Assembly (NCBI GenBank): GCA_030390025.1
Contig: CM059453.1
Span: 6,882,001 to 6,946,000, forward strand
DNA from: Squalus acanthias
Taxonomy: Eukaryota
Direction of reading: 5' to 3'
DNA: 64,000 nt
Of the stretch, positions 288 to 56,097 are shown piece by piece. The position numbers and the translations under genes are program-made. A model generated the notes under the pieces. The model saw only the letters and a program-made list of their open reading frames with translations, was not told the DNA's origin and made no database searches. Every line of letters starts with the position of its first letter. Positions within the stretch are counted from its first letter, which is position 1.

Positions 288-336
288 CGAATCGTTGTTG
301 GTAAGGGGGACACCAGTGGTAGCTCTTGTCTTCTTC
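288..336 (-). CDS. Siglec-like gene 1, exon 7: first cytoplasmic exon (RKKTRATTGVPLTNNDS); further exons probably left of the window
   Basis: Acceptor ttttgaatcag, phase 2. Aligns codon for codon with the gene 2/3 cytoplasmic exon. Donor TCG|GTGAGT after 288; read-through meets TAG at 269-267; second donor GAG|GTAAGT after 249. Confidence 0.75.
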
Positions 337-3352: not shown

Positions 3353-3437
3353 CTGTGCACCATCACCACGATCAGGATCAAAAGGATAACTGCCGCGGCT
3401 GCCAGTACTGAGATGAGAATTTCCCAGGGAAATGTTT
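3353..3437 (-). CDS. Siglec-like gene 1, exon 6: uncharged transmembrane segment (ETFPWEILISVLAAAAVILLILIVVMVHR)
   Basis: Acceptor atattttag, donor AG|GTATGT, 85 nt, phase 1-2. Hydrophobic run of about 21 residues; splice context matches the TM exons of genes 2 and 3. Confidence 0.85.
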
Positions 3438-7465: not shown

Positions 7466-7753
7466 CTTCAGTTTTGAGCTGGTATTTTCCGACAGTAACG
7501 CCATGCTCGTTTACTCCAAAACATGAGATCAGGTGTCCAGTTCCAGTTGGGTGAGTCAGTGTCAGGGAGCTCAGCACCAGGTGCCTATTCAACTCCGAGG
7601 AGAGGATATTGATATCTGAACTGTTCGCAGTGATGTTTCTCCCCTTGATGCCCCAGGTGATGTTTGCTGGGGGGTTTGCTCTGACACTGCAGGTACAATG
7701 AATCCCACTGTCAGAGCTGGTGCAGGTCGGGCCTGATACTACTGTCGGTTTAT
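7466..7753 (-). CDS. Siglec-like gene 1, exon 5: membrane-proximal Ig domain 4
   Basis: Acceptor tttttaag, donor G|GTATAT, 288 nt. PTCTSSDSGIHCTCSVRANPPANITW...ISCFGVNEHG has the C..CxC pattern of Siglec/MAG membrane-proximal domains. Not in the ORF track. Confidence 0.9.
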
Positions 7754-8009
7754 CTTAAAAAAAGTGAAGTCATGTTGAAATTGTTTCCATGCAGCGGTTT
7801 GCAGTGTCTAAATAGAACCAATTTCGGCGATTAGATTAAGAAGAGAGGTCACTGCACATAAGGAGTTTGATTAGAACCATTCAATGTTACTTTCATTTCA
7901 TGCTTCATCAGACTTTCCTTTCCCCTATTTCTAGCAAGGCAATTAATAAGATATAAAATTGCATCAAGCAGTCAATTGATCCATATATTTCCTGGAATAA
8001 CATGTGGGA

Positions 8010-8356
8010 TCAGTCGGTTGTCCTTTGAGTAGAGATTGAGTAGTTTGGGCCTATACTCGCTGGAGTTTAGAAGAATGAGAGATGATCTCATTGAAACATG
8101 ATATTCTGAGGGGGATTGACAGGGTAGATGCTGAAAGGTTGTTTCCCCTGTCCGGAGAGCTGAAAACTAGGGGGCATAGTTTCAGGATAAGGGGACGGCC
8201 ATTTGAGACTGAGATCAGGAGGAATTTCTTCACTCAGAGGGTAGTGAATCTTTGGAATTCTCTACCCCAAAGGGTTGTGGATGCTGAGTCATTAAGTATA
8301 TTCAAGGCTGAGATGGACAGATTTTTGGACTCTAGGGGAATCAAGGGATATGGTGA
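8010..8356 (+). mobile_element. CR1 3' fragment truncated by a deletion
   Basis: KTRGHSFRIRG..FFTQRVVNLWNSLP; equivalent to the older fragment split by the long CR1 in genes 2 and 3. Confidence 0.85.
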
Positions 8357-8616
8357 TCCCACATATTCATTCAGTTGGTTTTAACCAATCAGAGATACAT
8401 TTTACCTGGTGTTGTGTATCGGGGTGTCCAGTTGTTTTTTAAAAGTGTCTTTTACTCAATGAATTTGGTTCAACTCTCCTTTTACTGACATTTCAGGCAA
8501 TATTACTACGGATTTTGAGACAGTAGTGTGAACACTGGGGTGAAAACACCGAGCCTAATCAGTATAAGACGGATTGATGTCCCAATATACATTTGATAGG
8601 TTGAGAAAGCACTTAC

Positions 8617-8874
8617 ATTGTACAGAAATCTGTGAGGAGCTGTTCGCTTTGCCCAAGTTATTATCAGCCACGCACCAATATTCACCGTCATCTTCAAAAC
8701 TAATGTTGTGGAATATGTGCTTCAGTTCACCAGTGGAAGACTTGCTGATCTCCTCACCATTTCGGATCAAGGTTAAGTTGCCCGGTATGGTCCCCCTGGC
8801 CGTGCAGTATAATAATAAAGAGCTTCCTTCCACTGCCGCTATAGAGGAATTGATGGCTGGTTTTTGTGGGCCAT
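8617..8874 (-). CDS. Siglec-like gene 1, exon 4: Ig domain 3
   Basis: Acceptor cttccag, donor T|GTAAGT, 258 nt. VEGSSLLLYC...EDDGEYWCVADNNLG. Confidence 0.92.
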
Positions 8875-9249
8875 CTGGAAGAGATGATGCCATTGTTTCT
8901 AAATGCGGTTATCAGTGCGGATGAGGAAAATAAAACAATATATGTGATAACTGAAGAAGAATATAAAACTTAGATATGGTGGTTTTCTTGTAAACTATGA
9001 ATTCAAAATGCAGCACATGACTTTTATGCACTAGATGTTAAGCTTATTTCAAAACTAAGCCTCCTTTCCCCTCTTATCTTCAAGGATTTGAAAAGTTGTA
9101 TATTTTCCCGCGTAAGGTTCTATTCCTCCGGTACATCAACCAAGTGGCCATTCCTCCCAGAATAAGTAGGACGGCCTTTCCCATCTCTTACACAGTGGTG
9201 CTGAGGCAAATTGTAGAATCCCGAACACCGCCCCAGTTAAATTGCGCCA

Positions 9250-9915
9250 CAGGTTAGCAAGACCATAAAAAAGCAAACCAAGCACTAGGGTTTATTCCGA
9301 GACGGATAAAATTAAAAAGTAGGAAAGTTATGCTAAATCTGTATCGAACCTCGGTTAGACCACATTTAGAATACTGCATGCAATTCTGCCCGCTATATTA
9401 TAAAAATGATATAGAGGCACTGGAGAGGGGGTAGAGAAGAATTGCAAGGATGATACCAGAAATGCGGGGGGTACATATATCAGGAAAGGATGAACAGGTT
9501 GAGTCTCTTTTGTCTTGAGAAAAGACGGCTGAGGGGTGACCTAATAGAGGTCTTTAAAATTATGAAAGACATTCATAGAGCGGATACAGAGAGAATGTTT
9601 CCACTTGTGGGAAGAAGATAACTAGAGGCCATCAATATAAGATAGTCACCACAAATCTAACAGGGAATTCAGAAGAAACGTATTTACCCAGAGAGTGGTG
9701 AGAATGTGGAACTCGCTACCACAGGGAGTGGTTGAAGCGAATAGTAGAGATGCATTTAAGAGGAGGGTGGACAAGCATATGAGGGAGAAGGGAATAGCGG
9801 TTTAGGCTGATAGATTTAGATGAGGAAAGACGGGAGGAGGCTCGTGTGGAGCATAAACGCCGGCATGGACTGGTTGGGCCCAATGACCTGTTTCTCTGCC
9901 GTATGTCCTATGTAT
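9250..9915 (+). mobile_element. CR1 3' fragment (paralog at about 37146-37810)
   Basis: Decayed RT C-terminal coding sequence and 3' tail. Confidence 0.85.
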
Positions 9916-10203
9916 ATATGTGAGTTAGCTCAGACCATGAATGGACTCTCCTTGGCCTGTATGTTCCAGTTACTCTGTGGCTGAACAAAATCAGGTGTTG
10001 GAAGCCTTTGCAATTATATTTCATATAAACCACATCCCTGGAGTGACCAATGTTACTCCATGGTTCTGGGGCAAATGTGAAATCATGTGTCTTACAAGAA
10101 GCTTCAATTATCCAGGCGAGCTATCACTATATTTAGCATACAGACATCTATTGAACCGGTTCATCAATACGTTGGTTGAAGGAAGCGTAGAGCAGGCACT
10201 TAC

Positions 10204-10515
10204 TTTTAACATCCAGTGTAAGAGTTTCTTCATCAGTAGCTGTGACACCGTCGACTATAAATTTACATCCCAGCTTCTTCCCATGATGGTCCAGTGATGG
10301 GCTGAAGTTGAAAGTGGATGAAACCTTCTGGGAATCGTCGAAACTGTTATCATGTCCTTTTGAAGTTTTAATCTCTGGCAGAAATGGAGGTACAACATTG
10401 TCATGGGTCCACATCAATTCAAGGTTGGCGGACGGGCAACTGTGGGTGACTGAGCAGGTCAGGTGTGCTGGCGTTCCTGCAATCAATTCCCCAGAGACTG
10501 ATATCCATGGTTTAT
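10204..10515 (-). CDS. Siglec-like gene 1, exon 3: C2-set Ig domain 2
   Basis: Acceptor ccttacag, donor A|GTAAGT, 312 nt. LTCSVTHSCPSANLELMW (Siglec domain-2 extra Cys) and DHHGKKLGC. Confidence 0.92.
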
Positions 10516-11690: not shown

Positions 11691-12071
11691 CTAAAATAGA
11701 AAGAGTGACCTTAGATTCGGTAGAATATCCTTCTCTCTTATTCTGGGCATTGATGATCTCCAATTTGAAATAATAAACACCTTCATCGATCTTCCTGATG
11801 TCCTTTAACTGTAAGGAACATTGTTTCTTTTCAAAGTCGCCGGTGAACTGAGCTCGCCCTCTGTAGTTCAAGGGCACGTTGTCTGAATTCCGGGAATCAC
11901 AGATAATCGACACCCCTGAGGTACCAGGTTTAGGACCCCCCTTTAACCACATACCCTGTGGACTGCGGCCATAGGCGGGATAATCAAATGTACACGGGAT
12001 CTCTGCACATGACCCGTTTACCGTCGACACCTTCCACGGCACCTTCACAGACCATCGTGAACTATGGACAA
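11691..12071 (-). CDS. Siglec-like gene 1, exon 2: V-set Ig domain
   Basis: Acceptor ttcaccag, donor G|GTAGGT, 381 nt, phase 1-1. Siglec/MAG-type motifs W-S-V...GSCAEIPCTFDYP, YRGRAQFTGD..KQCSLQLKDI..DEGVYYFKLE. Confidence 0.92.
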
Positions 12072-12467: not shown

Positions 12468-12510
12468 CTTCGCTAAATATCAGAAGGGAGATCAATCTAA
12501 TACTCTTCAT
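12468..12510 (-). CDS. Siglec-like gene 1, exon 1: signal peptide (MKSIRLISLLIFSE-G)
   Basis: ATG at 12510, hydrophobic leader, 43 nt, phase-1 donor G|GTAAAA. Identical to the gene 2 leader exon. Confidence 0.85.
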
Positions 12511-20723: not shown

Positions 20724-21486
20724 GGCCCAGAAATTGGAGTTCGATGTTTGCCGCGGGGGTAAGGATCCCCCGCGAATTCGCACTCCGCGCCAACCTTTAT
20801 GGTTTTGTCACAAAAGAACTTCCAGTCCTGGGCCTCTCCCTGGTGCCGGCGCGCAGTGTGTGCGTGTCCAAGAGACGCAGTTAATTCGATGCGACCTCTG
20901 GGATCACGTGGGCCAGTTAGAGCCAATGGCAGCACACCATCTTTCATTCATAGTTTTGACTGCAAGTGCTTTCAAAACTATGAATACAACAAGCCCCCAA
21001 AAGAACAGCTAAACCTCAATTAAATTTAAAAAAGCCAACACATTAGTAAAATAACTATAGTTAAATAATTTAACCACTTTAAACAAAAATTTAAATATTT
21101 GAAAAAATTTAAATTCTTTTTAAAAGTTCTAAAAATAAACTTACCTTTCTTTAAACTCGCTAAAAAAGATAAACCTGTTGAAAAAAAATTAAAATAATAC
21201 TTAATTAACTACTTACTTTGTTAAAAGGGGGTCTTACGCCTGCTTTCTTTATGTGTAAAATCTTAAACACTTACCTGCGGGTTCAAACCTGAAAAATGAA
21301 CTAAGTGCGCTGTGTGCGCACAACCTGTAGCGCGCACGCGGTTCACTTAGGAACCGCCCCTTTCGCAATACACGAAGTGCCGGTTTCCCTCGCATGCACA
21401 GTGCATGCAGGAAACCGGCACTTCGGGACATAATACGCGAGAGTACACAGTGCGTAATCTCCCGTATTAGGTCTAATTTTCGGGCC
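20724..21486. mobile_element. Non-autonomous Harbinger-type MITE, copy 1 (763 bp)
   Basis: TIRs GGCCCAGAAATT / AATTTTCGGGCC, 3-bp flanks AAT and ACT, GC-rich palindromic subtermini, AT-rich core. Absent at the paralogous site near 47820. Confidence 0.85.
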
Positions 21487-21489
21487 ACT

Positions 21490-22251
21490 GTCCCAGAAAT
21501 TAAACATCAATGGTTCCCGCGGGGGTAAGGTTTCCCCGCGAGATCGCACTCCGAGCCTACCTTTTTGTTTGGGGCCCACACGAACTTTAGTTTCAGAGCC
21601 TCTCCCTGTTGCAACCGTGCAGTGTGTGCGTATCCCAGAGGCGCAATTAATTCGTGCGAGTTCTGGGATCACGTGATTCAGTTAGCGCCAATGGCAGCAC
21701 ACCATCTTTCATTCATAGTTTTGAATGCAAGAGCTGTCAAAGCTATGAATACTACAAACCCCGAAAAGAACAGCTAAACCTCAATTATTTTTTTTAAAAA
21801 GCCAACAGATTAATAAAATAAGTATAGTTAAATAAATTAAACACTTTAAACAAAAAATTAAATTTTTGAAAAAATTTTAAATATTTTTAAATGTTATAAA
21901 AATAAACTTACCTTTCTTTAAATTCTCTAAAAAAGATAAACCTGCTGAAAAAAATTAAAATAACACTTAATTAACTACTTACCTTGTTAAAAGGGTATCC
22001 TACGCCTGCTTTCTTTATGTGTAAAATCTTCACCACTTACCTGCGCGTTCAAACCTGAAAAAAAAACTAAGTGCACAGCGTGCACGCAACCTGTAGTGCG
22101 CACGCGGTTCACTTCGGAAAGGCCCCTTTGCAATTCACGAAGTGTCGGTTTCCCGCGCATGCGCAGTGCATGCAGGAAACCGGCAATTCGGGATCTAATA
22201 CGCGAGAGTACACAGTGCGTACTCTCGCGTATTAGGTTTAATTTTCGGGCC
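21490..22251. mobile_element. Non-autonomous Harbinger-type MITE, copy 2 (762 bp), head-to-tail with copy 1
   Basis: Ends GTCCCAGAAATT / AATTTTCGGGCC, flanks ACT and ATT. 17-bp perfect-stem hairpin CTAATACGCGAGAGTAC..GTACTCTCGCGTATTAG near 22195-22235. Confidence 0.85.
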
Positions 22252-24829
22252 ATTGTCCTCTTCCTGATGCAATGCACTTTCCACCTTTGTCCAACAGATG
22301 TGACACGTATTGTGATCTGGTGGATTTCCACACATCCTCTCAATAGAAGGAAGCGCTCCAACTGCCACTTCAATCACTTTGGAGACCAGGCCCATGAATC
22401 TTCTGTTATCCAAGCTAAACGCATCCGGAACAAGTTTTAAAGCTTGCTACATTATTCTTATTAAGACACTCTGCTCTTACTGGCACACAGAGTCTGGGTT
22501 TATTCAGTTGAATTATAGTCAAGTGTTGCGTTTTACTTAGGTGACTCGTTGCAACATTTCATGCAAATTATTCTGTTTGATGCTTGGAACACAGAGTGAT
22601 TTTATGGAAATCAACGTGGTTTTCAAATTGAATTGGGACATTGCAATCTGTTAGACTGTGATGTCAAATAAGTTATTGTTGATTTTTGCACTGAGTTTCA
22701 GGAAACCCACCTGACCCGCCTCTCCAACATTCCTGTTCTATTGTTTATTCGTAGAATCATAGAATAATACGGTGCAGAAGGTAATTATTCAGCCCATCGT
22801 GCCTGTGCCGGCTCTTTGAAACGGATATCCAGTTAGTCCCACGCGCCTGTTCTTTCTCCACGCATGACCCTGCAAATTATTCCTTTTAAAGTATAACTCC
22901 AGTTCACTTTGGAAAGTTACTATTGAAATTGATGCTATCACAGCTTCAGGCAGTGCATTCCATGTCATAACAATTCTCCGTTTATACTCTGCCATTTTTT
23001 CCAAATTTACATTCCAGCACCTTGCAGTGATATGCATGTTTGAACGTCACCCCATCCACCACCTTAAACATTCACTCCCTCCATCAGCGGCATATCGTGG
23101 CTGCAGTGTGTACCATCTACAAGATGCACTGCAGCAACTCGCCAAGGCTTTTTTGGCAGCATCTCCCAAACCAGAGGCCCCTTCCACCTAGAAGGACAAG
23201 GGCAGCAGGCGCAATGGAGCAACACCACCTCCAGGTTCCCCTCCAAGTCACACAACAAGCTGACTTGGAATTATATCGCCGTTCCTTCATCGTCGCTGAG
23301 TCAAAATCCTGGAACTCTCTCCCTAAAATCACTGAGGGAGTACCTTGACCACACGGACTGCAGCCGTTCAAGAAGGCGGCACACCACCACCTTCTCAAGA
23401 GCAAATAGGGATGGACAATCAATGCTGGCCTTGCCAGAGACGCACGCATCTCATGAATCAATTAAAAATATGTGGCGTCCTGTGCATTTCTCCATTCCAT
23501 GCATCCCACCATTGGTTCCCAGGACTTACTGTTGCCTAGGCCTTGTGGAACACCCCATTATATCCACATCCCCTCTCTATGACTCTATCATCCTTCAACG
23601 TCATCTTTTGTTTCTAGCCTGCAATTTACTATCTCTCTAAATCTCTTAAACTTTCTCCACTGTCTTGGAATGTACTCCTCTTGCTATAAACTCTGTAAGC
23701 GCCTAGGACGTTTTATACTTCAAGTCACTATGTTAAAGTTGATTTTCATAAGAGGTTGTACATCACCCAATATATCTCACATTGGCGGTGGTTAGTGGAT
23801 AGGCAATGGAAACATGTAGATTTCCCATTGAATATTGCAGACGGGGCTATCAAATGAACATCCCTGAGGGCACCTGAACCACACATTGTATCTCAGAGTG
23901 GGTGGTCTGAATGGACTACCTGTGGCGATGTGTAATGTACCTATTGTGTCGTACAGTGGGAGCAGTTATTGATTATCCCTGATGCCCAGTGTCTCATCCA
24001 TTGAATCTCACATTATTTTTGGCTAACTGATAATGGTGGGGAGATGAAGATTGTTTATTGTATCTCGCACTGGGAGCTGTGGATGCTGTTTGGGACCCGC
24101 TCACATATCCATGCTCCGAAATCCAGCGGAATTATTGTGCTAGTTTACAACAGAGTAAATACATAATATAATATATATGCTAAATACCACTGACCTGACA
24201 GACAAAAGTGAAAAGTGAGCAGATATTGCACCACTGATACAGAGGTAGAACTAACCAGAGTCCTGTTATTATAACATATTTTATAATCTTCGTTCTTCGG
24301 TTGGCCTCTCTTGACCTGAAGTAGGGACTCAGATGAAGCAGATTGTCGGAATATTCCTCCGGAGGCTGTGTTTTAGTGACAGTGTGAACTTCTGGTAAGT
24401 TTATTTCTATTGCAATCATAACACCCAGGGAACGTTTGCGATTTCAGTGGAGATACTGAAGAAGGGGAGTGTTCCCGATGTGCATTTTCAATGTCAATAA
24501 CTAAGTCGAATCCCCCAGAAATATTCACACTGTCAGGACCACAAACAGATAAAAGGGGATGTTTTGCAGTTGTTGCACAGACGCCTTAACAGGAGCTTAC
24601 TCCTTCAATTGACTGCACTATCCCTGACCGGGAAAGGTGGATGATTATTTTGAATGAATGTAAAGTGTTCCACTCTCAGCTCCACGGAGCTCAAGTAACA
24701 GATATCAAGGCAAATGATTTATGACTTTTTAATAAAGCATTGGATACACTAAACAATGACATATTATGCGTTACATCGTGATCCTCTTCTAAAACCGGCC
24801 TCACCATTTTTGAGCAAGAATCAATTTTC

Positions 24830-25200: not shown

Positions 25201-26415
25201 TACAGTTTGATAACGAGCGGAATCTTATACGTACAGCAATACTTGACAAACTACCCAGCTCCATTGTTTATAATGCTTTTGCTTACATTGTACACTGATT
25301 CTGAATGTCTCTTCTGGAATTGACAATAGGTTGATAAAAGTCCGGGAGTCGTAAAGGAAACTGATGGGAACTGACACTGAGCTGTGATGATTGATTATCC
25401 TGGGCTGGCAGAGGCTGTCAAACTAATCCAGCTGACGATAGAGAGGTTCATCGTTGACCGCCAGGGTTGTCTATGAATGCTACAGAGGGAGCTCTGCAAT
25501 GAAAACACTGTTAGCATTACTCATGAAGTCTGCTATTCTATTAAAGCACGTCAAAAACTGTTTCAAAGTTACTCTGACCTTTAAAGCCCACAGCATTTCA
25601 GACATGTGGTTTGAATGTAAACATGTGCGGGATTGTAAATTAGAAAAATTAAAAGCAAAATTGAAAAATGCTAATAATTAACCTGAGAAATATGCTCATT
25701 TTCACAGCAATCCCTGGAATGTGAGGGTCTTTTCTATCCCATGAACCGGCTGTGTTGAGATATTGATGAGCTCCATCAGTCCAAAAGGATTAAATCCCGC
25801 TGGACTTGATTTAAACTTAATCGCGTCGTATTCAATGGACTCCTCATTCAGGAGATATCTTTCATGCTTGTGAAGACTTCAAAAATTCCCTGATTGCGTG
25901 CAGACCCTCTACACTTTGCGCTGATTGTTGGATGTAGATCAACTGATAACAATATTTCTATACTGGTCTTGGCTCTGTAACAGACAGGAGTGGATTAGAT
26001 AGGGAGCAAGAGATACGGTTGTCAGTGTGCCTCCTGTCCCAGAATAACCCTCTTTCTCGCTTCTCTGATCATATTCCATTGATCTCATTCAGTGAGGGGC
26101 ACGTTATGAGCTTTGGGACATACAGACGTCTGAAAAGACGAACAGGAAATAAACGACTGGCCAATGAGCATGTCCAAAACAGTCAAGACGTAACAATGCA
26201 CCATGACCACAGTATTCCCTCTCACCACCATGCAACCGCTCGCGGGAGGCAAAAATATGTAAACAGCACTCGGCCAATTCGGGAATCTGCAAAATTATTA
26301 TCCGACATCGAAGATGAACAAAACGAGTACCAAGTGGTTAACAGTGTCTATGAGGTAGATCACCCAACATCCCACCTAAGATTTGTATACACTGATATTA
26401 GCCAAAGGAAGGAAT

Positions 26416-26877: not shown

Positions 26878-27861
26878 GGTCCAGTTCCTTTTTGAATTGT
26901 TGCAGCGAATTCGTACTCATCACAAGAGCCGATAACTTATTACAAGTGTCGATGCACCCCTGGGTAAAGAAGAACCATCAGATATATAAAATAGTTTTAG
27001 GTTTTCATCTGGCGAATTATCAGGACAGCTACACCTTGTACCCAATGCATTACAATGGACGTGCTACAGTAAACCTGCTTACAACCAGGGACTGCAAACA
27101 GCAAATGAGATCAATGGCCAAGCAGTCACAATTTGCTGGCTTTGGAGGAGTTCTAACCACCAAGTGTGGAGCAATCCCATTCTTCTTGCAGTAGTGCATG
27201 AGATTGCTAACATCCACCAGAACCACTAGAACAGGCAGCCTGGGCCTGGGATTAAGATGTGCAGAGGAGTCTGTCCTCTCCTTCTCACAGTGCATGACAT
27301 TGAGAACATCAAGCTGAAGCCAAAGCCTCGGTATATCGGAAAGGCAGCAGCTCCAACAATGTGGCACGCCCGGAGTACGACAAAGGCTCAAATCCTGACG
27401 TGAGGTTGCAACCCACAACCTTCAGCATCATGGAGTGCGCGCTACCAAATCAGCCAAACTGACACCAAGACAAATGGAGGAAGATGCAAAAATGCTGGAG
27501 AAATGCGATGCGATTTCGACCTGTTCTTGCATCACACTGTGTTTATAATTTTAACCATAAGAGATAATATAGTCGGGGAGTATTCATTACTCTTGGTAAT
27601 GTATCTAATGAAATTAGGAAGTTGCTATTTTAGTCGGACTCATTTCAAAATAAGTCCAGACCAGAGAAAATGTCCATGAACCCATTTACCGATTAATGCA
27701 CACAATCTCCACTGCAACATTTCCCTGTTCATGGGGTGAGGAGGCCATTCCACCCTTTAAAAAGACGTTCAAACCATTTCCTATGACATCTGTTTAACTC
27801 TTGGATGTGTCTGTAATGTGATCCCAGACAATGTTCACAACATTCCATGTCCTCACTGACC

Positions 27862-27946
27862 TCAGTTCAGTGGGTTCTGCAACTCACAGTAAATCGCTGC
27901 ACCCTTGTCTGTAGGAGAGACCACAACAGGGACATTTACCTTCTTC
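27862..27946 (-). CDS. Siglec-like gene 2, exon 7: short cytoplasmic tail (RKKVNVPVVVSPTDKGAAIYCELQNPLN*)
   Basis: Acceptor ttctgtttcag, phase 2, stop TGA at 27864-27862. The seven exons total 1467 nt = 488 aa plus stop, with no internal stop. Confidence 0.8.
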
Positions 27947-28728: not shown

Positions 28729-28828
28729 CTGTGTGAATCAATCTCTATCGTCACCAAGACAATGATGCCAATCAGAATGAGAACTGCGACGGCGGCTCTG
28801 ATTGTCATGACAAATCTCCAAAATGATC
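28729..28828 (-). CDS. Siglec-like gene 2, exon 6: Arg-containing transmembrane segment (GSFWRFVMTIRAAVAVLILIGIIVLVTIEIDSHR)
   Basis: Acceptor atattttag, donor AG|GTATGG, 100 nt, phase 1-2. Arg codon AGA at 28799-28797. Confidence 0.88.
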
Positions 28829-29759: not shown

Positions 29760-30047
29760 CCCCAGATTGTAGCTGGTACTTTCCGACAGTAACGCCATGC
29801 TCATTTACTCCAAAACATGAGATCAGGTGCCCAGTTCCAGTTGGGTGAGTCAGTGTCAGGGAGCTCTGCACCAGGTGCCTATTCAACTCCGAGGAGAGGA
29901 TATTGATTTCTGAACTGTTCGCAGTGATGTTTCTCCCATTGATGCCCCAGGTGATGTTTGCTGGTGGGTTGGCTCTGACACTGCAGGTACAATGAATCCC
30001 ACTCTCAGAACTGGTGCAGGTCGGGCCTGATACTATTGTGGGTTCAT
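29760..30047 (-). CDS. Siglec-like gene 2, exon 5: Ig domain 4
   Basis: 288 nt, acceptor ttttttag, donor G|GTATAT, PTCTSSESGIHCTCSVRANPP. Confidence 0.9.
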
Positions 30048-30515: not shown

Positions 30516-33500
30516 TGGCAGCGGCGAGGATCCGATGCAAAAACAACAAAAAAAGCAGAGTGACGTCACAGGAAAGCAGGTAGGTGATTGGTTGATGAGT
30601 ATTTCAGCTCTTTTAGGCTCTATTAGTTAGGGAAGGGGTTAAATTAAAAGCCGAGAAACGGTAACTTCCAATACATATTAAATTGATAACTTAAATTAGA
30701 TAAAATAATTAAAAATAAAATATCGTTTGAATAAAAGCTTTAACTAATTAATTAATAAATGACACAAGGTTAGAGATGACAGGGCAGGTGGTATGTCGTA
30801 CCTGCAGCATGCGGGAGACTGCGGAGAGCATCGCGATCCCGAGCAACCACATCTGCAGTGTCTGCGACTCGAGGAACTTCGGCTCAGAATTGTTGAGCTG
30901 CAGTACGAGCTGCAGACATTGCGATGCATCAGGGAGGGGGAGAGTTACCTAGACACTTTGTTCCAGGGGGCAGTAACACCCTTTATGTTAAGTAGAACTT
31001 TAGAGTTCGTCAGTGGTCAGGGACAGGAGTGTGTGCCCGCGATTCAGGAAGGTATGGGGAGCCAGGATGTAGTGATGGAGGAGCATTAGCCCTGGATCTT
31101 GTCCAACAGGTACGAGGTACTTGCTACCTGTATGAATGAGGAAAAGGACTGCAAGGAGAATGAGCAAACTGACCACGGCATTGTGGTACAGGGGGCCATT
31201 CAAGTAGGGGGAGAAGGAAGGAATGTGGTTGTAGTAGGGGGCAGTATATTCAGGGGGGTAGTTACTGATCTCTGCAGCTGCGAAAGAGAGTCCCGAACGC
31301 TGTGTTGCCTGCCCGGTACCAGGGTTAAGGATAACTCCTCACGGCTGGAGAAGAATTTGGAGCGGTAGGGGGTGGATCCATTTGTCATGGTCCATGTAGA
31401 AATCAACGACCTAGGTAGAACCAGGAATGATGTTCTGCTGAGGGAGTTAGAGGAGCTATGATATAAATTAATAATCAGAACAACAAGGATAATAATCTGT
31501 GGAATACTAACTGAGCCACGCGCAAATTGGCATAGGGTCAAGCAGATCAGAGAGTTAAATGCGTGTTTCAAAGTGTGTGTGGGAAGAAGTGTTTTCAATT
31601 CATGTGGCAGTGGCGTCTGTAGATAGGTCATTAACCAAAAAAAATGGGGTAGGGTTCAGTTTAGTGGGAATTTAGAAATCTAAAAAGAAAAGTGCAGGGA
31701 ATAGAGCAGTGTAGCGATTTGGGTAAAAATAAGAGGATTGTGACAGGTAGGCGCGGAAAGTTTAATGGTAGCAGTGCAGCAGAGAATAAGGTCAAAACAG
31801 GGATTAATGGTAAAAAAATAAAGCCTCTTTATCTGAAAGCACGAAGCATTCGTAACAAGATAGACGAACAAGTGGCACAGATAGAATTAAATGGGTTTGA
31901 TCTAATAGCCTGTACAGAGACGTGGTTGCAAGGTGAACAAGGTTGGGAACTAAATGTTCCAGACACTTGACATTTCAAAAAGACAGGCGAAATGGAAAAG
32001 GAGGGGGAGTAGCGCTGATAATAAAGAATGACATAAGGAAAGTAGAGTAAAAGAATCTCGGCTCGGAAGATCAGGAAGTAGAATCAGTATGGGTGGAGAT
32101 AAGGAATAACAAGGGGCAGAAAACACTGGTGGGACTAGTATATAGGCATCCTAAAGTAGCTATACCGTTGGACAGAATATTGATCAAGAAATAGTAGGAG
32201 CTTGTAACAAAGGTAATACAATAATCGTGGGGGACTTTAATTTTCATATAAATCTGGAGGACGAGTTCATGGAATGCATTCGGGACAGTTTCCTTGAACA
32301 ATGTGTCATCGAACCAACCGTGAATCAGGCTATTTTCGATCTTGTACTCTGTAATGAGACAGGATTAATTAATAATCTCATAGTAAAGGATTCTCTGGGG
32401 CAGAGTGAGTCAACATAATATGATATAATTTCAAATTAAGTTTGAGAGTGACTTACCTAGGTCTGAAACTAGAATCTTAATCTTAAATAAATCCAATTAC
32501 ATAGGTATGAGGGGCGAGTTCGCTAAGGTAGATTGTAAAAATAGATTAAAATGTATGGTGGTAGATAAGCAGTGGCTAGCATTTAAAGAAATATTTCATA
32601 ATTCTCAACAAAAATACATTCCATTGAGAAACAACAATTCTACGGGAAAACTGATCCAACCCTGGCTACTTAAAAAATTAAGGATAGCATTAGATTGTAA
32701 GAAGAAGGTTATAACGTTGCAAAGAATAGCAGTAAGCGTGAGGATTGGGACAGTTCCAGAAACCCGCAAAGGACGAGCCAAAAATTGATGAGAAGGGATA
32801 AAATAGAATGAGAGAAAAATGGCAAGAAATATAAAAGCAGATTTTAAGTGTTTAGACAAGTATGCAAAAAGGAAGAGAAGAAGCAAAAGTAAATGTTGGT
32901 TCCTGAGAGGCTGAGACAAGATAAATTCTTATGGGGAATAAGGAAATGGCAGAAACGTTAACCAAATATTCTGTATCTGTCTCCACAGTACAAGACACAA
33001 AAAGCATACCACAAATGGTGGGGAACCAAGGGTCTAATGAGGGTGAGGTACTAAACGTAATTAATATAATTAGAGAAAAAGTGCAGGAGAAAGTAATGGG
33101 ACTAAAAACCGACAAATCCTCTGGACCAGACGGCCTACATCCTAGGGTTCTAAAAGAGGTGGCTGAAGAGATAGTTGATGCATTGGTTTTGATCTTTCAA
33201 AATTCCAAAGATTCTAGAAATTTCCCAGCAGATTTGAAGTTCGCAAATATAACACCGCTATTCAATAAAGGAGGGAGAGAGAAAACAGAGAACTACAGGC
33301 CAGTTAGCCTGATATCAGTCGTCGTGAAAATGCTGGAATCCATTGATAATGAAGTGGTAACAGGGCACTTAGAAAATCATAACATGATTCGGCAGAGTCA
33401 ACATGGTTATATGAAAGGGAAACCGTGTTTGAAAAATTTATTACAGTTTTTTGAGGATGTAACTAGCAGGGTAGATCAAAGGGAATCAGTGGATGTAGTA

Positions 33501-34708
33501 TATTTGGATTTCCAAAAAGGCATTCGATAAGGTGCCACATAAGAGGTTGTTACACAAGATTAGGGCTCGTGGAATTGGGGGTAATATAGTAGTGTGGATA
33601 GAGCATTGGTTAACGGGCAAAAAACAGAGAGTAGGGATAAACAGATCTTTTTTCAGGTTGGCAGGCTGCAACTAGTGGGGTGCCGCAAGGATCAGTGTTG
33701 GGGCCTCAGCTATTTACAATCTATATTAATGACCTAGATGAAGGGATCGAGTGTAATGTATCCACGTTTGCTGACGATACAAAGCTTGGTGGGGCAGTAA
33801 GCTGTGAGGAGAACACAAATGATCTGCAAAAGGATATAGATAGACTCAGTGAGTGGGCAGTAAGGTGGCAGATGAGGTATAATATAGGGAAATTGGAGTT
33901 TATTCACTTTGGTCGGAAGAATAGAAACACAGATGATTTTTAAAAGGGTGAGAACCTTTCAAATGTTGGTTTTCAGAGAGATTTGGGTGGCCTCGTGCAA
34001 GAAACACAGAAAGCTAGCATGCAGGTACAGCAAGCAATAAGGAAAGGCAAATGGCATGTTGGCCTTTATTGCAAGGGGGTTGGAGTACAAGAGTAAGGAA
34101 ATCTTGCTACAATTGCACAGGGCCTTGGTGAGATCACACCTGGAGTACTGTGCACAGTTTTGGTCTCCTTATCTAAGGAAGGATATACTTGCCTTGGAGG
34201 CGGTGCAACAAAGGTTCACTAGATTGATCCCATGGATGAAAGGGTTGTCCTATGAGAAGAGATTGACTAGATTGATCCTATATTCCCTCGAGTTTAGAAG
34301 AATGAGAGGTGATCTCATTGAAACATACAAGATTCTGAAGGGTATTGCTATGGTAGATGCTGAGAGGTTTTTTCGGCCTGGCTGGTGTGTCTAGAACCGG
34401 GGTCACTATCTCAGGATAAGGGGTAGGTATGCGATTTAAGACTGAGATGAGGAGAAATTTATTCACTCAGAGGGTTGTGAATTTTTGAAATTCTCTGCCC
34501 CAGAGGGCTATGAATGCTGAGTCTTTGAGTATATTCAAGGCAAAGACAGATAGCTTTTTGGATTCATGTGGAATCAAGGGATATGGAGATCGGATGGGAA
34601 AGTGGAGTTGAGTTCGATGATAAGCCATGACCTTATTGAATGGTGGAGCAGGCTCGAGAGGCCGAATGGCCTAATCCTGCCCCTATTTCTTATGTTCTTA
34701 TGTTCTTC
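30516..34708 (+). mobile_element. Near-full-length, decayed CR1 LINE in the gene 2 domain 3-4 intron
   Basis: ORF1 remnants (CxxC knuckle from ATG 30776, ELRLRIVELQYEL coil, GDSL-esterase-like block). ORF2 remnants (ACTETWL, GDFN endonuclease; PQGSVLGP, FADDTKL RT). TATGTTCT tail. Many stops and frameshifts. Splits an older CR1 fragment (about 30310-30515 and 34709-34980). Confidence 0.92.
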
Positions 34709-36489: not shown

Positions 36490-36747
36490 ATTGTACAGAA
36501 ATCTGTGTGGAGCTGTTCGCTTTGCCCAAGTTATTGTCAGCCACGCACCAATATTCACCGTTATCTTCAGAACTAATGTTGTGGAATATCTGCTTCAGTT
36601 CACCTGTGGAAGACCTGCTGATCTCTTCACCATTTCGGACCAACGTTAAATTGCCCGGTATGGTCCCCCGGGCCGTGCAGTATAATAATAAAGTGCTCCC
36701 TTCCACTGCCGCTATAGAGCAATTGATGGCTGTTTTTTGTGGGCCAT
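36490..36747 (-). CDS. Siglec-like gene 2, exon 4: Ig domain 3
   Basis: 258 nt, canonical splice sites, EDNGEYWCVADNNLG. Confidence 0.92.
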
Positions 36748-38096
36748 CTGGAAGGGATGATGCCATTGGTTCTAAATGTGGTTATCAGTGCGGATGAGGA
36801 AAATAAAACAACATATGTGACAACTAAAGAAGAATATTAAAGTAAGATATGATGGTTTTCTTGTAAACTATAAATTCAAAATGCAGCCCATGACTTTTAC
36901 GCACTAGATGTTAAGCTTATTCCAAAAATAAACATTCATCTCTTCAAGGATTTGAAGAGTTGCATGTTTTCCCGTGTTAGGTTCTATTCCTCCGGTACAT
37001 CCCGTGTAAGGTTCTATTCCTCCGGTACATCAACCAAGTGGCCATTCCTCCAAGAATAAGTAGGATGGACTTTCCCATCTCTTACACAGTGGTGCTGAGG
37101 CCAATTGTAGAATCCCGACCACCGCCCCAGCTAAATTGCGCCACAGGTTAGCAAGACCATAAAAAAGCAAACCAAGCACCAGGGTTTATTCCGAGAAGGA
37201 TAGAATTAAAAAGTAGGGAATTTATGCTAAATCTATATCGAACCTCGGTTAGACCACACTTAGAGTACTGCGTGCAATTCTGGCCGCCATATTATAAAAA
37301 GGATATAGAGGCACTGGAGAGGGTGCAGAGAAGAATTGCAAGGATGATGCCAGAAATGCGGGGTATATATATCAGGAAAGGATGAACAGGCTGGTCTCTT
37401 TTCTCCTGAAAAAAGAAGGCTGAGGGGCGACCTAATAGAGCTCATTAAAATTATGAAAGGCTTTCATAGAGCGGATACAGAGAGAATGTTTCCACTTGTG
37501 GGGAAGAAGATAACTAGAGACCATCAATATAAGATAGTCACCACAAATCCAACAGGGAATTCAGAAGAAACTTCTTTACCCAGAGAGTGGTGAGAATGTG
37601 GAACTCGCTACCACAGGGAGTGGTTGAAGCGAATAGTGGAGATGCATTTAAGGGGAGGGTGGACAAGCATATGAGGGAGAAGTTAATAGCGGGTTAGGCT
37701 GATAGATTTAGATGAGGAAAGACGGGAGGAGGCTCGAGTGGAGCATAAACGCCGGCATGGACTGGTTGGGCCCAATGACCTGTTTCTCTGCCGTATGTCC
37801 TATGTATATATGTGAGTTAGCTCAGACCATGAATGGAGTCTCCTTGGCCTGTATGTTCCAGTTACTCTGTGGCTGAACAAAAATCAGGTGTTGGAAGCCT
37901 TTGCAATTATATTTCATATAAACCACATCCCTGTAGTGACCAATATTACTCCATGGTTCTGGGGCAAATGTGAAATAATGTGACTTACAAGAAGCTTCAA
38001 TTGTCCAGGCGAGCTATCACTATATTTAGCATACAGACATCTATTGAACCGCTTCATCAATAAGTTGGTTGAATGAAGCGTAGAGCAGGCACTTAC

Positions 38097-38408
38097 TTTT
38101 AACATCCAGTGTAAGAGTTTCTTCATCAGTAGCTGTGACACCGTCGACTATAAGTTTACATCCCAGCTTCTTCCCATGATGGTCCAGTGATGAGCTGAAG
38201 TTGAAAGTGGATGAAACCTTATGGGAATCGTCGAAACTGTTATCATGTCCTTTTGAAGTTTTAATCGCTGGCAGAAATGGAGGTACAACATTGTCATGGG
38301 TCCACATCAATTCAAGTTTGGCGGACGGGCAACTGTGGGTGACTGAGCAGGTCAGGTGTGCTGACTTTCCTGCAATCAATTCCCCAGAGACTGATATCCG
38401 TGGTTTAT
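38097..38408 (-). CDS. Siglec-like gene 2, exon 3: C2-set Ig domain 2
   Basis: 312 nt, canonical splice sites, LTCSVTHSCPSAKLELMW. Confidence 0.92.
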
Positions 38409-39605: not shown

Positions 39606-39986
39606 CTAAAATAGAAAGAGTGACCTTAGATTCGGTAGAATATCCTTCTCTCTTATTCTGGGCATTGATGATCTCCAATTTGATATAATAAACACCTTCA
39701 TCGAACGTCCTGATGTCCTTTAACTGTAAGGAACATTGTTTCTTTTCAAAGTCGCCGGTGAACTGAGCTCGCCCTCTGTAGTTCAAGGGCACGATGTCTG
39801 AATTCCGGGAATCACAGATAATCGACACCCCTGAGGTACCAGGTTTAGGACCCCCCTTTAACCACATACCCTGTGGACTGCGGCCATAGGCGGGATAATC
39901 AAATGTACACGGGATCTCTGCACATGACTCGTTTACCGCCGACACCTTCCACGGCACCTTCACAGACCATCGTGAACTATGGACAA
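39606..39986 (-). CDS. Siglec-like gene 2, exon 2: V-set Ig domain
   Basis: 381 nt, canonical AG/GT, 6 nt differences from gene 1; ESCAEIPCTFDYP...DEGVYYIKLE. Confidence 0.92.
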
Positions 39987-40382: not shown

Positions 40383-40425
40383 CTTCGCTAAATATCAGAA
40401 GGGAGATCAATCTAATACTCTTCAT
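40383..40425 (-). CDS. Siglec-like gene 2, exon 1: signal peptide
   Basis: 43 nt, identical to the gene 1 leader, phase-1 GT donor. Confidence 0.85.
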
Positions 40426-40799
40426 GACTGGAGGCGGTTGACGATGTCAGAATGTCGGAGATTGTTTTTATCACAGATATAATTAATCAGGTTTCTAGAT
40501 TCCATTCGCCGGTAATAGACTGGAGTTCATAGCTTAACGAATCAGAGTATTAGGAGGTCAGCAGTTCGCCACCCACCAATCATTGGGAACCGTGGTAGCT
40601 CAGACAGCTTGCGCCACTTCTCAAATGTTGGCGATTAAAACTGCTGGAAATCTGAGTCACTTCGAGTATGACAGTGTGCATCAGTGATTGGCCCTCAGTT
40701 ACAGGATATAATGAGGCCCGGTTACTGCTGATTAACCCTGAGCAGAGATGAACCCAGCCCCCTTATCATCTGTACAGTTACAGGACAGGCAGTGGCACT

Positions 40800-48600: not shown

Positions 48601-51600
48601 ATGTTTGATCGTCACCCCATCCACCACCTTAAACATTCACTCCCTCCACCACCGGCGTATCGTGCCTGCAGTGTGTACCATCTACAAGATGCACTGCAGC
48701 AACTCGCCAAGGCTTCTTTGACAGCTACTCCCAAACCAGAGGCCCCTTCCACCTAGAAGGAGAAGGGCAGCAGGCACAATGGAGCAAAACCACCTCCAAG
48801 TTCCACTCCAAGTCACACACCACCCTGACTTGGAATTATATCGCCGTTCCTTCATCGTCGCTGGGTCAAAATCCTGGAACTCCATTCCTAACAGCACTGG
48901 GGGAGTAACTTCACCACACAGACTGCAGCGGTTCAAGAAGGAGGCTCACCGCCACCTTCTCAAGGGCAATTAGGTATGGGCAATCAATGCTGGCCTTGTC
49001 AGCGACGCCCACATCACATGAATCAATAAAAAATAATAGTGGCGTCCTGTGCATATCTTCTTTCCATGCATCCCACCATTTGTTCCCAGGACTTACTGTT
49101 GCCTAGGCCTTGTGGAACCCCCCATTATATCCACTACCCCTCTCTATGTCTCTATCATCCCTCAACGTCATATTTTGGTCCTAGCCTGCAATTTACTCTC
49201 TCTCTAAACCTCTTAAACTTTCTCCACTGTCTTGAAATGTACTCCTCTTGCTATAAACTCTGAAAGCGCTTCAGGACGTTTTATACTTCAAGGCACTATG
49301 TTGAAGTTGATTTTCATAAGAGGTTGTACATCACCCAATATATCTCACATTGGCGGTGGTTACTGGATTGGCAATGGACACATGTAGATTACCCATTGAA
49401 TCTTGCAGACGGTGCTTTCAAATGAACTTTCCTGCGGGCACCTGACCCACGCATTGTATCTCAGAGTGGGTGGTCTGAATCGACTACCTGTGGCGATGTG
49501 TAATGTACCTATTGTGTCGTACATTGGAACAGTTATTGATTATCCCTGAAGCCCAGTGTCTCATCCATTGAATCTCAGATTATGGTTGGCTAATTGATAA
49601 CGGTGGGGAGATGAAGATTGTTCATTGTATCTCGCACTGGGAGCTGTGGATGCTGGTTTGGGACCCGCTCATATATCCATGCTCCGAAATCCAGCGGAAT
49701 TATTGTGCTAATTTACAACAGAGGAAATACATAATCTAATATATATGCTAAATACCACTGACCTGACAGACAATAGTGAAAAGTGAGCTTATATTGCAAC
49801 ACTGATAAACAGGTAGAAATAACCAGTGTCCTATTATTATAACATATTTTATAATCTTAGTTGTTCGGTTGGCCTCTCTTGACCTGAAGTAGAGAGTCAT
49901 ATGAAGCAGATTGTCGGAATATTCCTCCGGTGGCTGTGTTTTAGTCACAGTGTGACCCTCATGGTAAGGTTTATTTCTATTGCAATCATAACACCCAGGG
50001 AACGTTTGCGATTTTAATGGAGATACTGAAGAGGGAAGTGTTCACGATGTGCATTTGCAATGTCACTAACTAAATATAATCCCCCAGAAATATTCACACT
50101 GTCAGGACCACAAACAGATAAAAGGGGATGATTTGCAGTTGTTGTACAGAAGCCTTAACAGGAGACTATTCCTTCAGTTGACTGCACTGAGCCTGACCGG
50201 GGAAAGTTGGATGATTATTTTAAATGTATGTCAAGTGTTCCACTCTCAGCTCCACTGAGCTCAAGTAACAGATAACAAGGGAAATGATTTATGACTTTTT
50301 AATAAAGCATTGGATACACTAAACAATGACAAATTATGTGTTACATCGTGACCCTCTTCTAACACTGGCCTCGCCATTTTTGAACAAGAATCCATTTTCT
50401 GAGGGGGCTTGTCAGGGTAGAAGCAGAGAGGGTTTTTCCCCTCGAGGAGGAATCTAGATCTAGGGGTCATAGTTTCAGAATAATATGCGTCCCATTTAAA
50501 ACGGAGATGAGGAGGAATTTCTTCTCTTAGAGGGTCGTGAATCTTGAAATTCTCTTCCCCAGAGAACTATGGAGGCTGAGTAATTGAATATAGTAAAGGT
50601 GTAGATAGACCGATTGTTGAACTATCGGGGAGTCAAGGGTGATGGAGAGCGGACAGGAAAGTGAAGTTGAGACCAAGATCAGATCAACCATGATCTTATT
50701 GAATGGCGGAGCAGGCTCGAGGGGCCGAATGGCCTACTCCTGCTCCTATTTCTTATGTTCTTATGTTCTGTACAGTTTGATAACGAGCAGAATCTAATGC
50801 GTGCAGCAATACTTGACAAAATACCCAGATCCATTATTTATAATGTTTTGCTTACACTGTAAACTGATACTGAAAGTCTCTTATAGAATTCAAATGTTGA
50901 TAAAAGTCCGGCTGTTGTAAAGGAAACTGATGGGAACTGGCAGTGAGATGTGAAGGTTTATTATACTGGGCTGGCAGAGGCTGACAAATTAATCCAGCTG
51001 ACGATAGAGAGGTTCATCGTTGATCGCCAGGGTTCTCTATGAATGTAACAGAGGGAGCTCTGCAATGAAAACACTGTTAACATTACTTAGGAAGACTGCT
51101 ATTCTATTAAAGCACATCAAAAACTGTTTCAAAGTTACTCTGACCTTTAAAGCCCAAAGCATTTCAGACATGTGGTTTGAATGAAAACATGTGCGGGATT
51201 GTAAATTTAAAAAGCAACAAGCAGAATTGAAAAATGCTAACAATTAATCTGCGAAATATGCTCATTTTCACAGCAATCCCAGGAATGTGAGGTTTTTTTC
51301 TATCTCATGAACCGGTTGTGTTGAGATATTGATGAGCTCCAACAGTCCAAAAGGATTAAATCCCACTGGATTTGATTTAAGCTTAATCGCGGTCTATACA
51401 CTGACTCCTCATTCTGGAGATATCCTTCATGTTTGTGAAGACTTCAAATATTCACCGATTGCGTGCAGAACCTCTACAATCTGCGATGATTGCTGGATGT
51501 AGATCATCTGATAGCAATATTTCGATACTGGTCTTGGCTCTGTAACAGAAATGAGTGGCTAAGAGAGGGAGCAAGAGATACGGGTATGAGGGCGCTTCCT

Positions 51601-52192: not shown

Positions 52193-53849
52193 ACAGTATT
52201 CCCTCTCACCACATTGCAACCTCTCGCTGGAGGCAAACATATGTAAACAGCACTCGGCCAATTGAGTAATCTGCAAAATTCTTCTCCGACCCCGAAGATG
52301 AACAAAACGAGTTCCAAGGGGATAACAGTGTCCATGAGGTAGATCACCCAACATCCCACCTAAGATTTGTATGCACTGATATTAGCCAAAGGAAGGAATT
52401 TGTCCTTATGACTTATGAAGAAAGGTTGAGCAGGTTGGGCCTATACTCACTGGAGTTTAGAAGAATGAGAGGTGATCTTATTGAAACATATAAGATACTG
52501 AGGGGGCTCGAGAAGGTCGATGCAGAGAGGATGTCTCCCCTCGTGGGGAAATCTAGAACACGGGGTCATATTTTCAGAATAAAGGATAACCCTTTGAGAA
52601 CTGAGATGAGGAGGAATTTCTTCTCACAGAGGGTCGTAAATCTGTGGAATTCTCTGCCCCAGAGAACTGCGGAGGCTGGGTCATTAAATACATTGAAGGT
52701 GGAGACAGACAGAATTTTGCAAGATGAGGGAGTGAGGGGTTATGGGGAGCGGGCAGGGAAGCGGCTTTGAGCCCGAGATAATTCATAATCTTATTGAATG
52801 GCGGAGCAGGCTCGAGGGGCCAATTGCTCTATTGCTGCTCCTGTTTCTTATGTTCTTATGTTGGTCCAGTTTCTTTTTGAATTGTTGCAGGGAATTCGCA
52901 CTCATCACACGAGCCGGTAACATATTAAATATGTCGATGAGGCCCTGTGTAAATAAAAACCATCAGATATCTAAAATAGTTTTAGGTATTCATCTGGCGA
53001 ATTATCAGGACAGCAGCACTTTGAACCCAATGCATTACAATGGACGTGCTACAGTAAACCTGCTTCCAACAAGCGACTGCAGACAGCAAATGAGATCATT
53101 GGCCAAGCAGTCACAATTTGCTGGCTTTGGAGGAGTTCTAACCACCACGTGTGGTGCAATCCCTATTCTTCTTGCAGTAGTGCGTGAGATTTCTAACATC
53201 CACCTGAACCAATAGAACAGGCAGCCTGGGCCTGAGATTAAGATGTGTGGAGGAGACTGTCCTCTCCTTCTCACAGTGCATGACATTGAGAACATTGAGC
53301 TGGAGCCAGATCCTCGGTATATCGGAAAGGCCGCAGCTCCGACAATGCGGCACGCACGGAGTACGACAAAGACTCAAATCCTGACGTGAGGTTGCAACCA
53401 ACAACCTTCAGCCTCAGAGAGTGTGCGCTACCAAATCAGCCAAACTGACACCAAGACACATGGAGGAAGATGCAAAAATGCTGGAGAAATGTGGTGCGAT
53501 TTGGCCCTGCTCTGGCCTCACACTACGTGTTTAGAATTTTGACCTCCGGTGATAATATAGTCGGGGAGTATTTATTACTCTGGTTAATGTGCCTAATGAA
53601 TTGGGAAGGTGTTATTTTAGACCGACTCATTTCAAAATAAGTACAGCCCTGAAAAAATGTCCATGATCCCATTTGCCCGATCAATGCACACAATTGCCAG
53701 TGCAACATTTCCCTGTTCATGGGGTGAGGAGGCCATTCCACCCTTTAAAAACGCTGTCAAACCAGTTCCTATAACATCTGTTTAACCCTTGGATGTGTCT
53801 GTAATGTGATCCCAGACAATTGTCTCAACATTCCATCTCCTCACTTACC

Positions 53850-53934
53850 TCAGTTCAGTGGGTTGTGCAGCACACAGTAAATCGCTGCACCTGTGTCTGT
53901 GGGAGAGACACCAACAGGGACATTTACCTTGTTC
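53850..53934 (-). CDS. Siglec-like gene 3, cytoplasmic exon (RNKVNVPVGVSPTDTGAAIYCVLHNPLN*)
   Basis: 85 nt paralog of 27862-27946. Stop TGA is followed by G|GTAAGT donor. Confidence 0.78.
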
Positions 53935-54731: not shown

Positions 54732-54831
54732 CTGTGTGAATTAATCTCTATCGTCACTAAGACAATGATGGCAATCAGAATGAGAACTGCGACGGCGGCT
54801 CTGATTGGCATGACAAATCTCCAAAATGATC
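54732..54831 (-). CDS. Siglec-like gene 3, Arg-containing TM exon (GSFWRFVMPIRAAVAVLILIAIIVLVTIEINSHR)
   Basis: 100 nt paralog of 28729-28828; Arg and Glu retained. Confidence 0.86.
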
Positions 54832-55809: not shown

Positions 55810-56097
55810 CCCCAGATTGTAGCTGGTACTTTCCGACAGTAACGCCATGCTCGTTTACTCCAAAACATGAGATCAGGTGTCCAGTTCCATTTGGGTCAGT
55901 CAGTGTCAGGGAGCTCTGCACCAGGTGCCTATTCAACTCCGAGGAGAGGATATTGAGAACTGAACTGATCGCAGTGATGTTTCTCCCATTGATGCCCCAG
56001 GTGATGTTTGCTGGGGGTTTGGCTCTGATACTGCAGGTACAATGAATCCCACTCTCAGAACTGGTGCAGGTCGGGCCTGATACTATTGTGGGTTTAT
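55810..56097 (-). CDS. Siglec-like gene 3 (5' exons beyond the window), Ig domain 4 exon
   Basis: 288 nt paralog of 29760-30047, open frame, canonical splice sites. Confidence 0.88.

Follow-up and report, generated by a model that had tools for sequence, protein, structure and literature searches.

A shark cluster of Siglec-like genes combines near-identical ectodomains with neutral and arginine-bearing transmembrane exons

Results

Three tandem genes on one strand

The window analyzed here, a stretch of 64,000 nucleotides of shark DNA, holds three tandem genes, all on the minus strand, as identified by self-alignment (Table 1). Gene 2 is complete, with a leader, a V-set exon, three more Ig exons, a transmembrane (TM) exon and a tail exon, which join through canonical splice sites into a single open reading frame of 496 amino acids (V-C-C-C-TM-tail). 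Gene 1 has the same exon set and continues beyond the window's low edge. Of gene 3, the last Ig, TM and tail exons are present; exons upstream of its membrane-proximal Ig were not found within the window. Rfam gave no matches across the window.

Table 1 Features of the three Siglec-like genes, with positions counted from the first letter of the window
Gene	Feature	Position	Strand
Gene 2	Leader exon	40383..40425	-
Gene 2	Siglec-type V-set exon; Lys at the essential-Arg position	39606..39986	-
Gene 2	Second Ig exon (C2/C1-like)	38097..38408	-
Gene 2	Third Ig exon; alternative in-frame acceptor 24 nt further in	36490..36771	-
Gene 2	Membrane-proximal Ig exon	29760..30047	-
Gene 2	TM exon, Arg type, 34 codons; Arg codon 28799-28797	28729..28828	-
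Gene 2	First tail exon, 27 codons with AIYCEL, then stop	27861..27946	-
Gene 2	Dead distal tail exon; remnant of ITIM and terminal Tyr motif	25810..25974	-
Gene 3	Membrane-proximal Ig exon	55810..56097	-
Gene 3	TM exon, Arg type; Arg codon starts at 54802	54732..54831	-
Gene 3	First tail exon, AIYCVL, then stop	53849..53934	-
Gene 3	Dead distal tail exon (aligned part)	51402..51539	-
Gene 1	Leader exon	12468..12510	-
Gene 1	V-set exon; Lys at the essential-Arg position	11691..12071	-
Gene 1	Ig exons 2-4 (10515-10204, 8898-8617 and 7753-7466)	7466..10515	-
Gene 1	TM exon, uncharged helix, homologous to the Arg exon	3353..3437	-
Gene 1	First tail exon, ends at a phase-0 donor	288..336	-

Several repeats and insertions surround the genes. 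An insertion of 3.2 kb, with LINE-like reading frames as judged by eye, occupies the same intron of genes 2 and 3 (30620-33844 and 60807-63999, 96% identical) and is missing from gene 1. An ORF for a Myb/SANT-like DNA-binding protein (59815-60465, minus strand; Pfam PF13873, E 3e-7) is inserted in an intron of gene 3, inside a GC-rich segment (56700-60800), and is of a type found in Harbinger-type transposons. Upstream of both leader exons a unit of about 1.5 kb is repeated in tandem (12878-16762 and 40793-44688), and a 50-bp minisatellite is present in both duplicated units (17472-17835 and 45373-45663). Downstream of gene 2, a 770-bp unit stands twice in tandem (20723-22258); the gene 3 unit lacks it.

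The ectodomain is Siglec-like

By Pfam the V domain is of Siglec type, and its best PDB sequence match is sialoadhesin (E 2.6e-12), followed by Siglec-10 and MAG. The AlphaFold model (pLDDT 91) likewise gives sialoadhesin as the best fold match (TM score 0.82), with MAG also at the top. The architecture is that of Siglecs, with an N-terminal V-set domain followed by C2-set domains, and the Siglec cysteines of the V domain (C21 and C26 close to strand B, C84 on strand E) align with those of the sialoadhesin, MAG and CD33-related rows. An additional Cys (V residue 57, region 39814-39816), possibly unpaired, occurs in both V domains of the window; most shark relatives have Tyr there.

Close relatives are all shark or ray proteins, the nearest being that of Heptranchias perlo (about 60-70% per domain). 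In the V tree the 23 chondrichthyan domains occupy one side of a 97/95 branch, opposite 18 bony-vertebrate Siglec rows; orthology to MAG, sialoadhesin or CD22 was considered and finds no support in this tree, the deep nodes of which are weak. Automatic annotation labels these genes as MAG-like or Siglec-5/13/14, merging the activating and inhibitory classes. In the ESM Atlas the C-terminal part of the Mustelus protein falls into generic Ig clusters, with the unreliable family call 'SIGLEC family-like protein 1' at the top (0.94).

The V domains of genes 1 and 2 have Lys in the column of the F-strand Arg that binds sialic acid. This essential Arg is present in 12 of the 23 chondrichthyan V domains, among them those of both other genes with an Arg-type TM described below. 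Lys is not known to substitute for the sialic-acid-binding Arg. For primate Siglecs, loss of this Arg is described as abolishing binding (PMC6288428).

An Arg-type TM exon in genes 2 and 3

The TM exon of gene 2 is 100 nt long, is flanked by an AG acceptor and a GT donor, runs from phase 1 to phase 2 and encodes GSFWRFVMTIRAAVAVLILIGIIVLVTIEIDSHR. The gene 3 copy reads ...MPIRAAVAVLILIAIIVLVTIEINSHR and is 96% identical to it. A pattern composed after the exon had been seen (Arg, 16-18 uncharged hydrophobic residues, an acidic residue and S/H) matches exactly twice in the six frames of the window, at these two exons; 100 shuffles gave 0.05 matches on average and at most 1. In a rough hydrophobicity scan, the scale values of which are approximate, the Arg stands at TM position 5-6 in the best windows; alternative windows place it at position 2 or, in gene 3, outside the helix, and in one of the six best gene 3 windows the helix lies wholly after it. 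An earlier note on this DNA had read an Arg near the outer face of the TM of genes 2 and 3; that transcription is accurate, with the Arg in the outer third in both. Its description of an activating-type TM on a Siglec-like ectodomain is borne out as well; the exon lies inside the intact 496-residue Siglec-like gene.

Searched alone, the TM exon has no match in the PDB at E<=10 or among 1.84 billion representatives at E<=0.001, both of which are weak tests with 32 residues. A profile of the fourth Ig domain (Ig4) plus the Arg-type TM retrieved Ig-domain matches only from the PDB and 11 shark proteins, with no additional Arg-type TM, from the protein collection.

A paired-receptor pattern in three sharks

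Nucleotide identity between genes 1 and 2 is 98.4% in the V exon, 97.4% in Ig2, 93.6% in Ig3 and 93.7% in Ig4, and it falls to 66.7% in the TM exon and 56.0% in the tail. Linked genes with near-identical ectodomains and divergent TM and tail regions are expected of paired receptors, and genes 1 and 2 show this pattern.

TM segments were compared in a set of 27 chondrichthyan sequences, which comprises the three of the window and 24 database models taken as one or two per cluster. This Arg-type TM is present in four of the 27: genes 2 and 3, Mustelus asterias XP_078093181.1 and Cetorhinus maximus XP_078392811.1. The four align without gaps, 13-17 of 32 positions being identical between species, and share invariant F, W, I, R, T, S and H, with seven residues from W to R and 21 from R to SH. 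Of the E..SH element that the earlier note placed at the inner face, the S-H is conserved throughout, but the acidic residue at +18 is not: it is E, E and D in three of the segments and G in Cetorhinus. The Arg-type and inhibitory gene models of Mustelus have consecutive accessions and lie on contigs of equal length. Mustelus and Cetorhinus are galeomorphs from two orders, and Heptranchias is a squalomorph; if the shark of the window is also a squalomorph, which its nearest neighbors suggest without showing it, the Arg exon predates the galeomorph/squalomorph split.

The trees of the ectodomain and of the TM are discordant. All four Arg-type segments lie on one side of an 88/96 branch in the TM tree, which has only 31 columns. 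In the Ig4 tree each Arg gene groups with neutral-TM relatives, that of Mustelus with its own paralogue (100/98) and that of Cetorhinus with Carcharodon (99/97), and a single clade of Arg genes is rejected at p-AU 6e-54 (a 19-row subset, with the group named from the TM sequence). The retrieved Heptranchias, Heterodontus, Chiloscyllium, Carcharodon and ray models showed no Arg-type TM, which speaks against a universal system; this absence is weak evidence because several of those models have no TM at all. In the Mustelus and Cetorhinus models the tails do not resemble those of the window and look mis-predicted.

Arg residues occur in two other TM segments. One belongs to another subfamily and is found in Scyliorhinus torazame XP_072326203.1 at residues about 170-201 (LLRIGAAAAVLVVLLAVV...TSSHH), a gene model that looks fused; its Arg stands two residues earlier than that of the window, it falls outside the window's group in the TM tree, and it possibly had an independent origin. 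The other is in Mobula hypostoma XP_062911968.1, the M. birostris counterpart of which has Ile at this place in a protein that is otherwise 89% identical; this could be a recent charge gain or an error.

The Arg exon is homologous to a neutral exon, and the ITIM exon behind it is dead

Aligned to each other, the Arg exon and the neutral TM exon of gene 1 show 67% nucleotide identity (z 6.1), with one 3-nt and one 18-nt gap and with a Leu codon opposite the Arg codon. Homology continues into both introns, the 5' flank being 74% (z 11) and the 3' flank 76% (z 17) identical between gene 1 and the Arg gene. For each of these three alignments, none of 1000 shuffles matches the score, and the control pair has z -1.5. 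The first tail exons of gene 1 and of the Arg genes are homologous too (z 6.7). In genes 2 and 3 this exon has a 2-nt gap relative to gene 1 and meets a stop 1 nt before the old donor. The AIYCEL and AIYCVL that it encodes retain the proximal Tyr, in register with the ancestral V-x-Y-A-x-V, with Ala at -2.

Farther downstream, at a distance from the tail exon of about 1.9 kb (gene 2) and 2.3 kb (gene 3), both genes have a dead distal exon; its three in-frame stops occupy matching positions in the two copies. The gene 3 copy has an extra 1-nt gap ahead of the terminal motif; the gene 2 copy still has an intact acceptor and is now probably 3' UTR. In other sharks the counterpart exon encodes a VLYAAV ITIM and a terminal EYAAI motif, and the tails of the neutral-TM database relatives mostly have VLYAAV-like and EYAAI-like motifs. 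The homology of exon and flanks to gene 1, taken with the truncated tail and the dead ITIM exon, argues that the activating-type gene is an inhibitory gene remodeled in place.

Two other readings of the tail were discarded. One, that transcripts of genes 2 and 3 bypass the stop by splicing to an ITIM exon that is still intact, was rejected because the distal exon is dead in both, with a degenerate ITIM besides the three stops. The other, origin of the YxxL by intron read-through, was rejected because the alignment matches it to the ancestral exonic Tyr.

In the tail exon of gene 1 (336-249, minus strand), the presumed phase-0 donor at 288 stands directly ahead of the proximal Tyr motif; in the continuation past this donor the Tyr is lost and a stop is gained. 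The gene 1 tail is short too if donor 288 is unused. A distal ITIM exon of gene 1 would be expected next, past the edge of the window.

Discussion

Adaptor choice

Coupling of the Arg-type receptor to some ITAM adaptor is likely, and that adaptor is probably of the gamma/zeta class; by the mammalian rule, an FcR-gamma/CD3-zeta-type chain is the likeliest predicted partner. In mammals, Fc-gamma partners are described with Arg in the TM's N-terminal segment and DAP12 partners with a central Lys (PMC1440944), the positions given being Arg 3 in FcalphaRI, Arg 4 in KIR2DL4 and Lys 9 in the DAP12 type (PMC1440944, PMC8102735). At position 5-6 in our rough scan, the shark Arg lies between the Fc-gamma type (3-4) and the DAP12 type (9), a depth that is compatible with gamma/zeta. 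Flanking sequence is described as mattering little, yet FcalphaRI with a poly-Leu TM is reported to have assembled at only 11% (PMC1440944, PMC8102735), and CD89 is reported to tolerate its Arg one turn lower (PMC13107469). Catfish IpLITR 2.6b is reported to bind FcR-gamma with Lys, Arg or Ala as its TM residue (PMC4810170), and mammalian rules can therefore fail in fish. A 2014 survey reports neither an FcR-gamma chain nor LRC genes in the shark genomes that it covers (PMC4016189), and cd247 is used as a T-cell marker in the account of the bamboo shark (PMC11372145).

The same paired anatomy could instead serve an Arg that recruits DAP12 or DAP10, as in mammalian activating Siglecs, a reading that we regard as unlikely. 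The intermediate depth of 5-6 speaks for it, as does Siglec-14, the TM Arg of which is rather N-terminal and still binds DAP12; in zebrafish Nitr9 the charged TM residue is an Arg. Signaling through DAP12 is described for Siglec-14, -15 and -16 (PMC13358205, PMC6941304, PMC6288428), recruitment of Dap12 through the charged TM residue for Nitr9 (PMC3463160), and pairing of Arg with DAP10 for NKG2D (PMC13107469). However, the type I partners of DAP12 are those described with the central Lys (PMC1440944), a change from Lys to Arg is reported to reduce KIR-DAP12 assembly to 15%, and the shark residue is an invariant Arg in all four segments.

A receptor of dual or dampened function, of the KIR2DL4/CHIR-AB type, or an adaptor-independent decoy is less probable again. 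Here the Arg would snorkel at the outer interface and the YxxL would signal or internalize. Although AIYCEL/AIYCVL aligns exactly with the ancestral proximal Tyr motif, its Ala at -2 falls outside the S/I/V/L-x-Y-x-x-I/V/L consensus (bioRxiv 10.1101/2021.06.11.448072). The one best gene 3 window in six with a helix that starts after the Arg also suits such a receptor, but adaptor use accounts better for the invariant Arg and spacing in three shark lineages and for the lost distal ITIM exon.

Probable convergence on the LRC-type TM

The resemblance of this TM to that of LRC receptors had been ascribed in the earlier note either to convergence or to an ancient TM module shared with those receptors. 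The FcR-gamma-docking TM of LILRA, FcalphaRI, GPVI, NCR1, OSCAR, TARM1 and Xenopus XFL/SLAM is defined by NxxR, by a DYT consensus at the N-terminus and by acidic residues toward the C-terminus (PMC6557307, PMC2413239, PMC4536121). In the shark Arg-type segments the Asn at -3 is absent from all four (M, M, F and L), and the N-terminus of the exon has GSFW/GPFW in place of DYT, matching the neutral GTFPW of the family. Descent from a shared LRC module is unlikely because the exon is homologous in place to the family's own neutral exon, both introns included, and lacks NxxR and DYT; of the two options, the first is thus the one upheld, and convergence is the best reading of the sequences. For an FcR-gamma-docking module held in common descent with LRC receptors (LILRA, FCAR, GP6, NCR1, OSCAR) and Xenopus XFL/SLAM and grafted onto a Siglec ectodomain, one may cite the sharing of NxxR TMs by unrelated Xenopus receptor families, the outer Arg with its polar or acidic C-terminal end and the age of the Arg-type exon within sharks, but besides the missing signature and the homology of exon and both intron flanks, Cetorhinus lacks the acidic residue, shark LRC homologues were not found in the genomes of the 2014 survey (PMC4016189) and both database searches with the TM exon, weak tests as they are, gave no matches, which leaves this origin very improbable.

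Proposed history and function

The explanation that we favor, and hold to be probable, is that the three genes belong to a shark Siglec-like paired-receptor cluster in which genes 2 and 3 activate and gene 1 inhibits, with a proposed gamma/zeta wiring. It takes up the gene anatomy, the exon homology, the truncation, the conservation of the Arg across species and the discordant trees, and it predicts expression, adaptor binding, a ligand and the distal ITIMs of gene 1. An inhibitory gene with a neutral TM, a proximal Tyr motif, a distal ITIM and a terminal Tyr motif would have duplicated. The TM exon of one copy would have gained the Arg, seven residues past the interface Trp, and a C-terminal extension of six codons; a stop would have closed the reading frame where the first tail exon ends, and the ITIM exon would have decayed. 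Later, the ectodomain exons would have been homogenized between the partners, with the TM exons staying separate lineages. Through its Arg the receptor would most likely engage the paired Asp residues of an FcR-gamma/CD3-zeta-family ITAM homodimer, giving surface arrival and signaling, and the activating member could act as a counter-trap for ligands that engage its inhibitory twin.

More speculatively, and with clearly less confidence, we suggest that sharks evolved an activating Siglec counter-trap of their own, possibly before the galeomorph/squalomorph split. It would have converged on the TM geometry of FcalphaRI and LILRA (an outer Arg, a longer polar C-terminal end and S-H at +21), perhaps more than once given the second register in Scyliorhinus torazame, and would signal via a chain of the CD3-zeta/FcR-gamma type, possibly a zeta-like chain alone if there is no true FcR-gamma. 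If true, this would be the deepest-branching paired Siglec system and the first in which a basic TM residue is wired to the gamma/zeta class, and the receptor in this species would no longer bind sialic acid canonically.

Comparison with known systems

The building blocks of the shark system are all known already. Our search, which had most subscription journals outside its reach, found no description of activating or paired Siglec-like receptors, or of shark FcR-gamma, in the cartilaginous-fish literature; the whale-shark genome paper yielded a single, general mention of Siglecs (PMC8455134). Knowledge of paired Siglecs comes mainly from primates, and these receptors are linked to DAP12. In primate Siglec-5/14 and Siglec-11/16, as described, a Siglec V-set ectodomain is likewise near-identical between an ITIM member and a short-tailed member with a charged TM, and concerted evolution proceeds by gene conversion (PMC6288428, PMC13358205). 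In contrast, the shark V domains form a separate lineage, set apart by the 97/95 branch from MAG, sialoadhesin, CD22-like and CD33-related domains; those of the window have Lys at the essential Arg, and the TM Arg in the outer third predicts gamma/zeta, not DAP12.

With the NxxR-TM receptors (LILRA, FcalphaRI, GPVI, NKp46, OSCAR, TARM1 and Xenopus XFL/ILR/SLAM), the shark genes share an N-terminally placed TM Arg, a C-terminal end that is polar or acidic, a short tail and a predicted partner of the FcR-gamma family. They differ in that the shark TM has neither NxxR nor DYT and has hydrophobic residues ahead of the Arg, in that its exon comes from the family's own inhibitory TM exon, and in an ectodomain of Siglec rather than LRC type. 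KIR2DL4 keeps a Tyr motif in its tail, a likeness to shark genes 2 and 3, although the shark motif is non-canonical. Together with macaque activating KIRs, KIR2DL4 is also described as having a TM Arg at the outer end that leads to FcR-gamma, the other activating members of the family using DAP12 (PMC8102735); the ectodomain and the class of ligand are different from those of the shark genes. The teleost NITR, LITR and DICP families are described as tandem clusters with inhibitory and charged-TM activating forms, as in the shark, but their ectodomains are unrelated and the accounts of them concern bony fishes.

The shark pair follows the same recipe as the primate pairs (duplicate, add a basic TM residue, cut the tail, homogenize the ectodomain) in the deepest branch of jawed vertebrates, and the intermediate steps of the remodeling are still legible in the DNA. 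It offers a bait for the ITAM adaptors that serve the innate receptors of cartilaginous fishes, and it bears on whether the depth of the Arg, without NxxR, sets the choice of adaptor.
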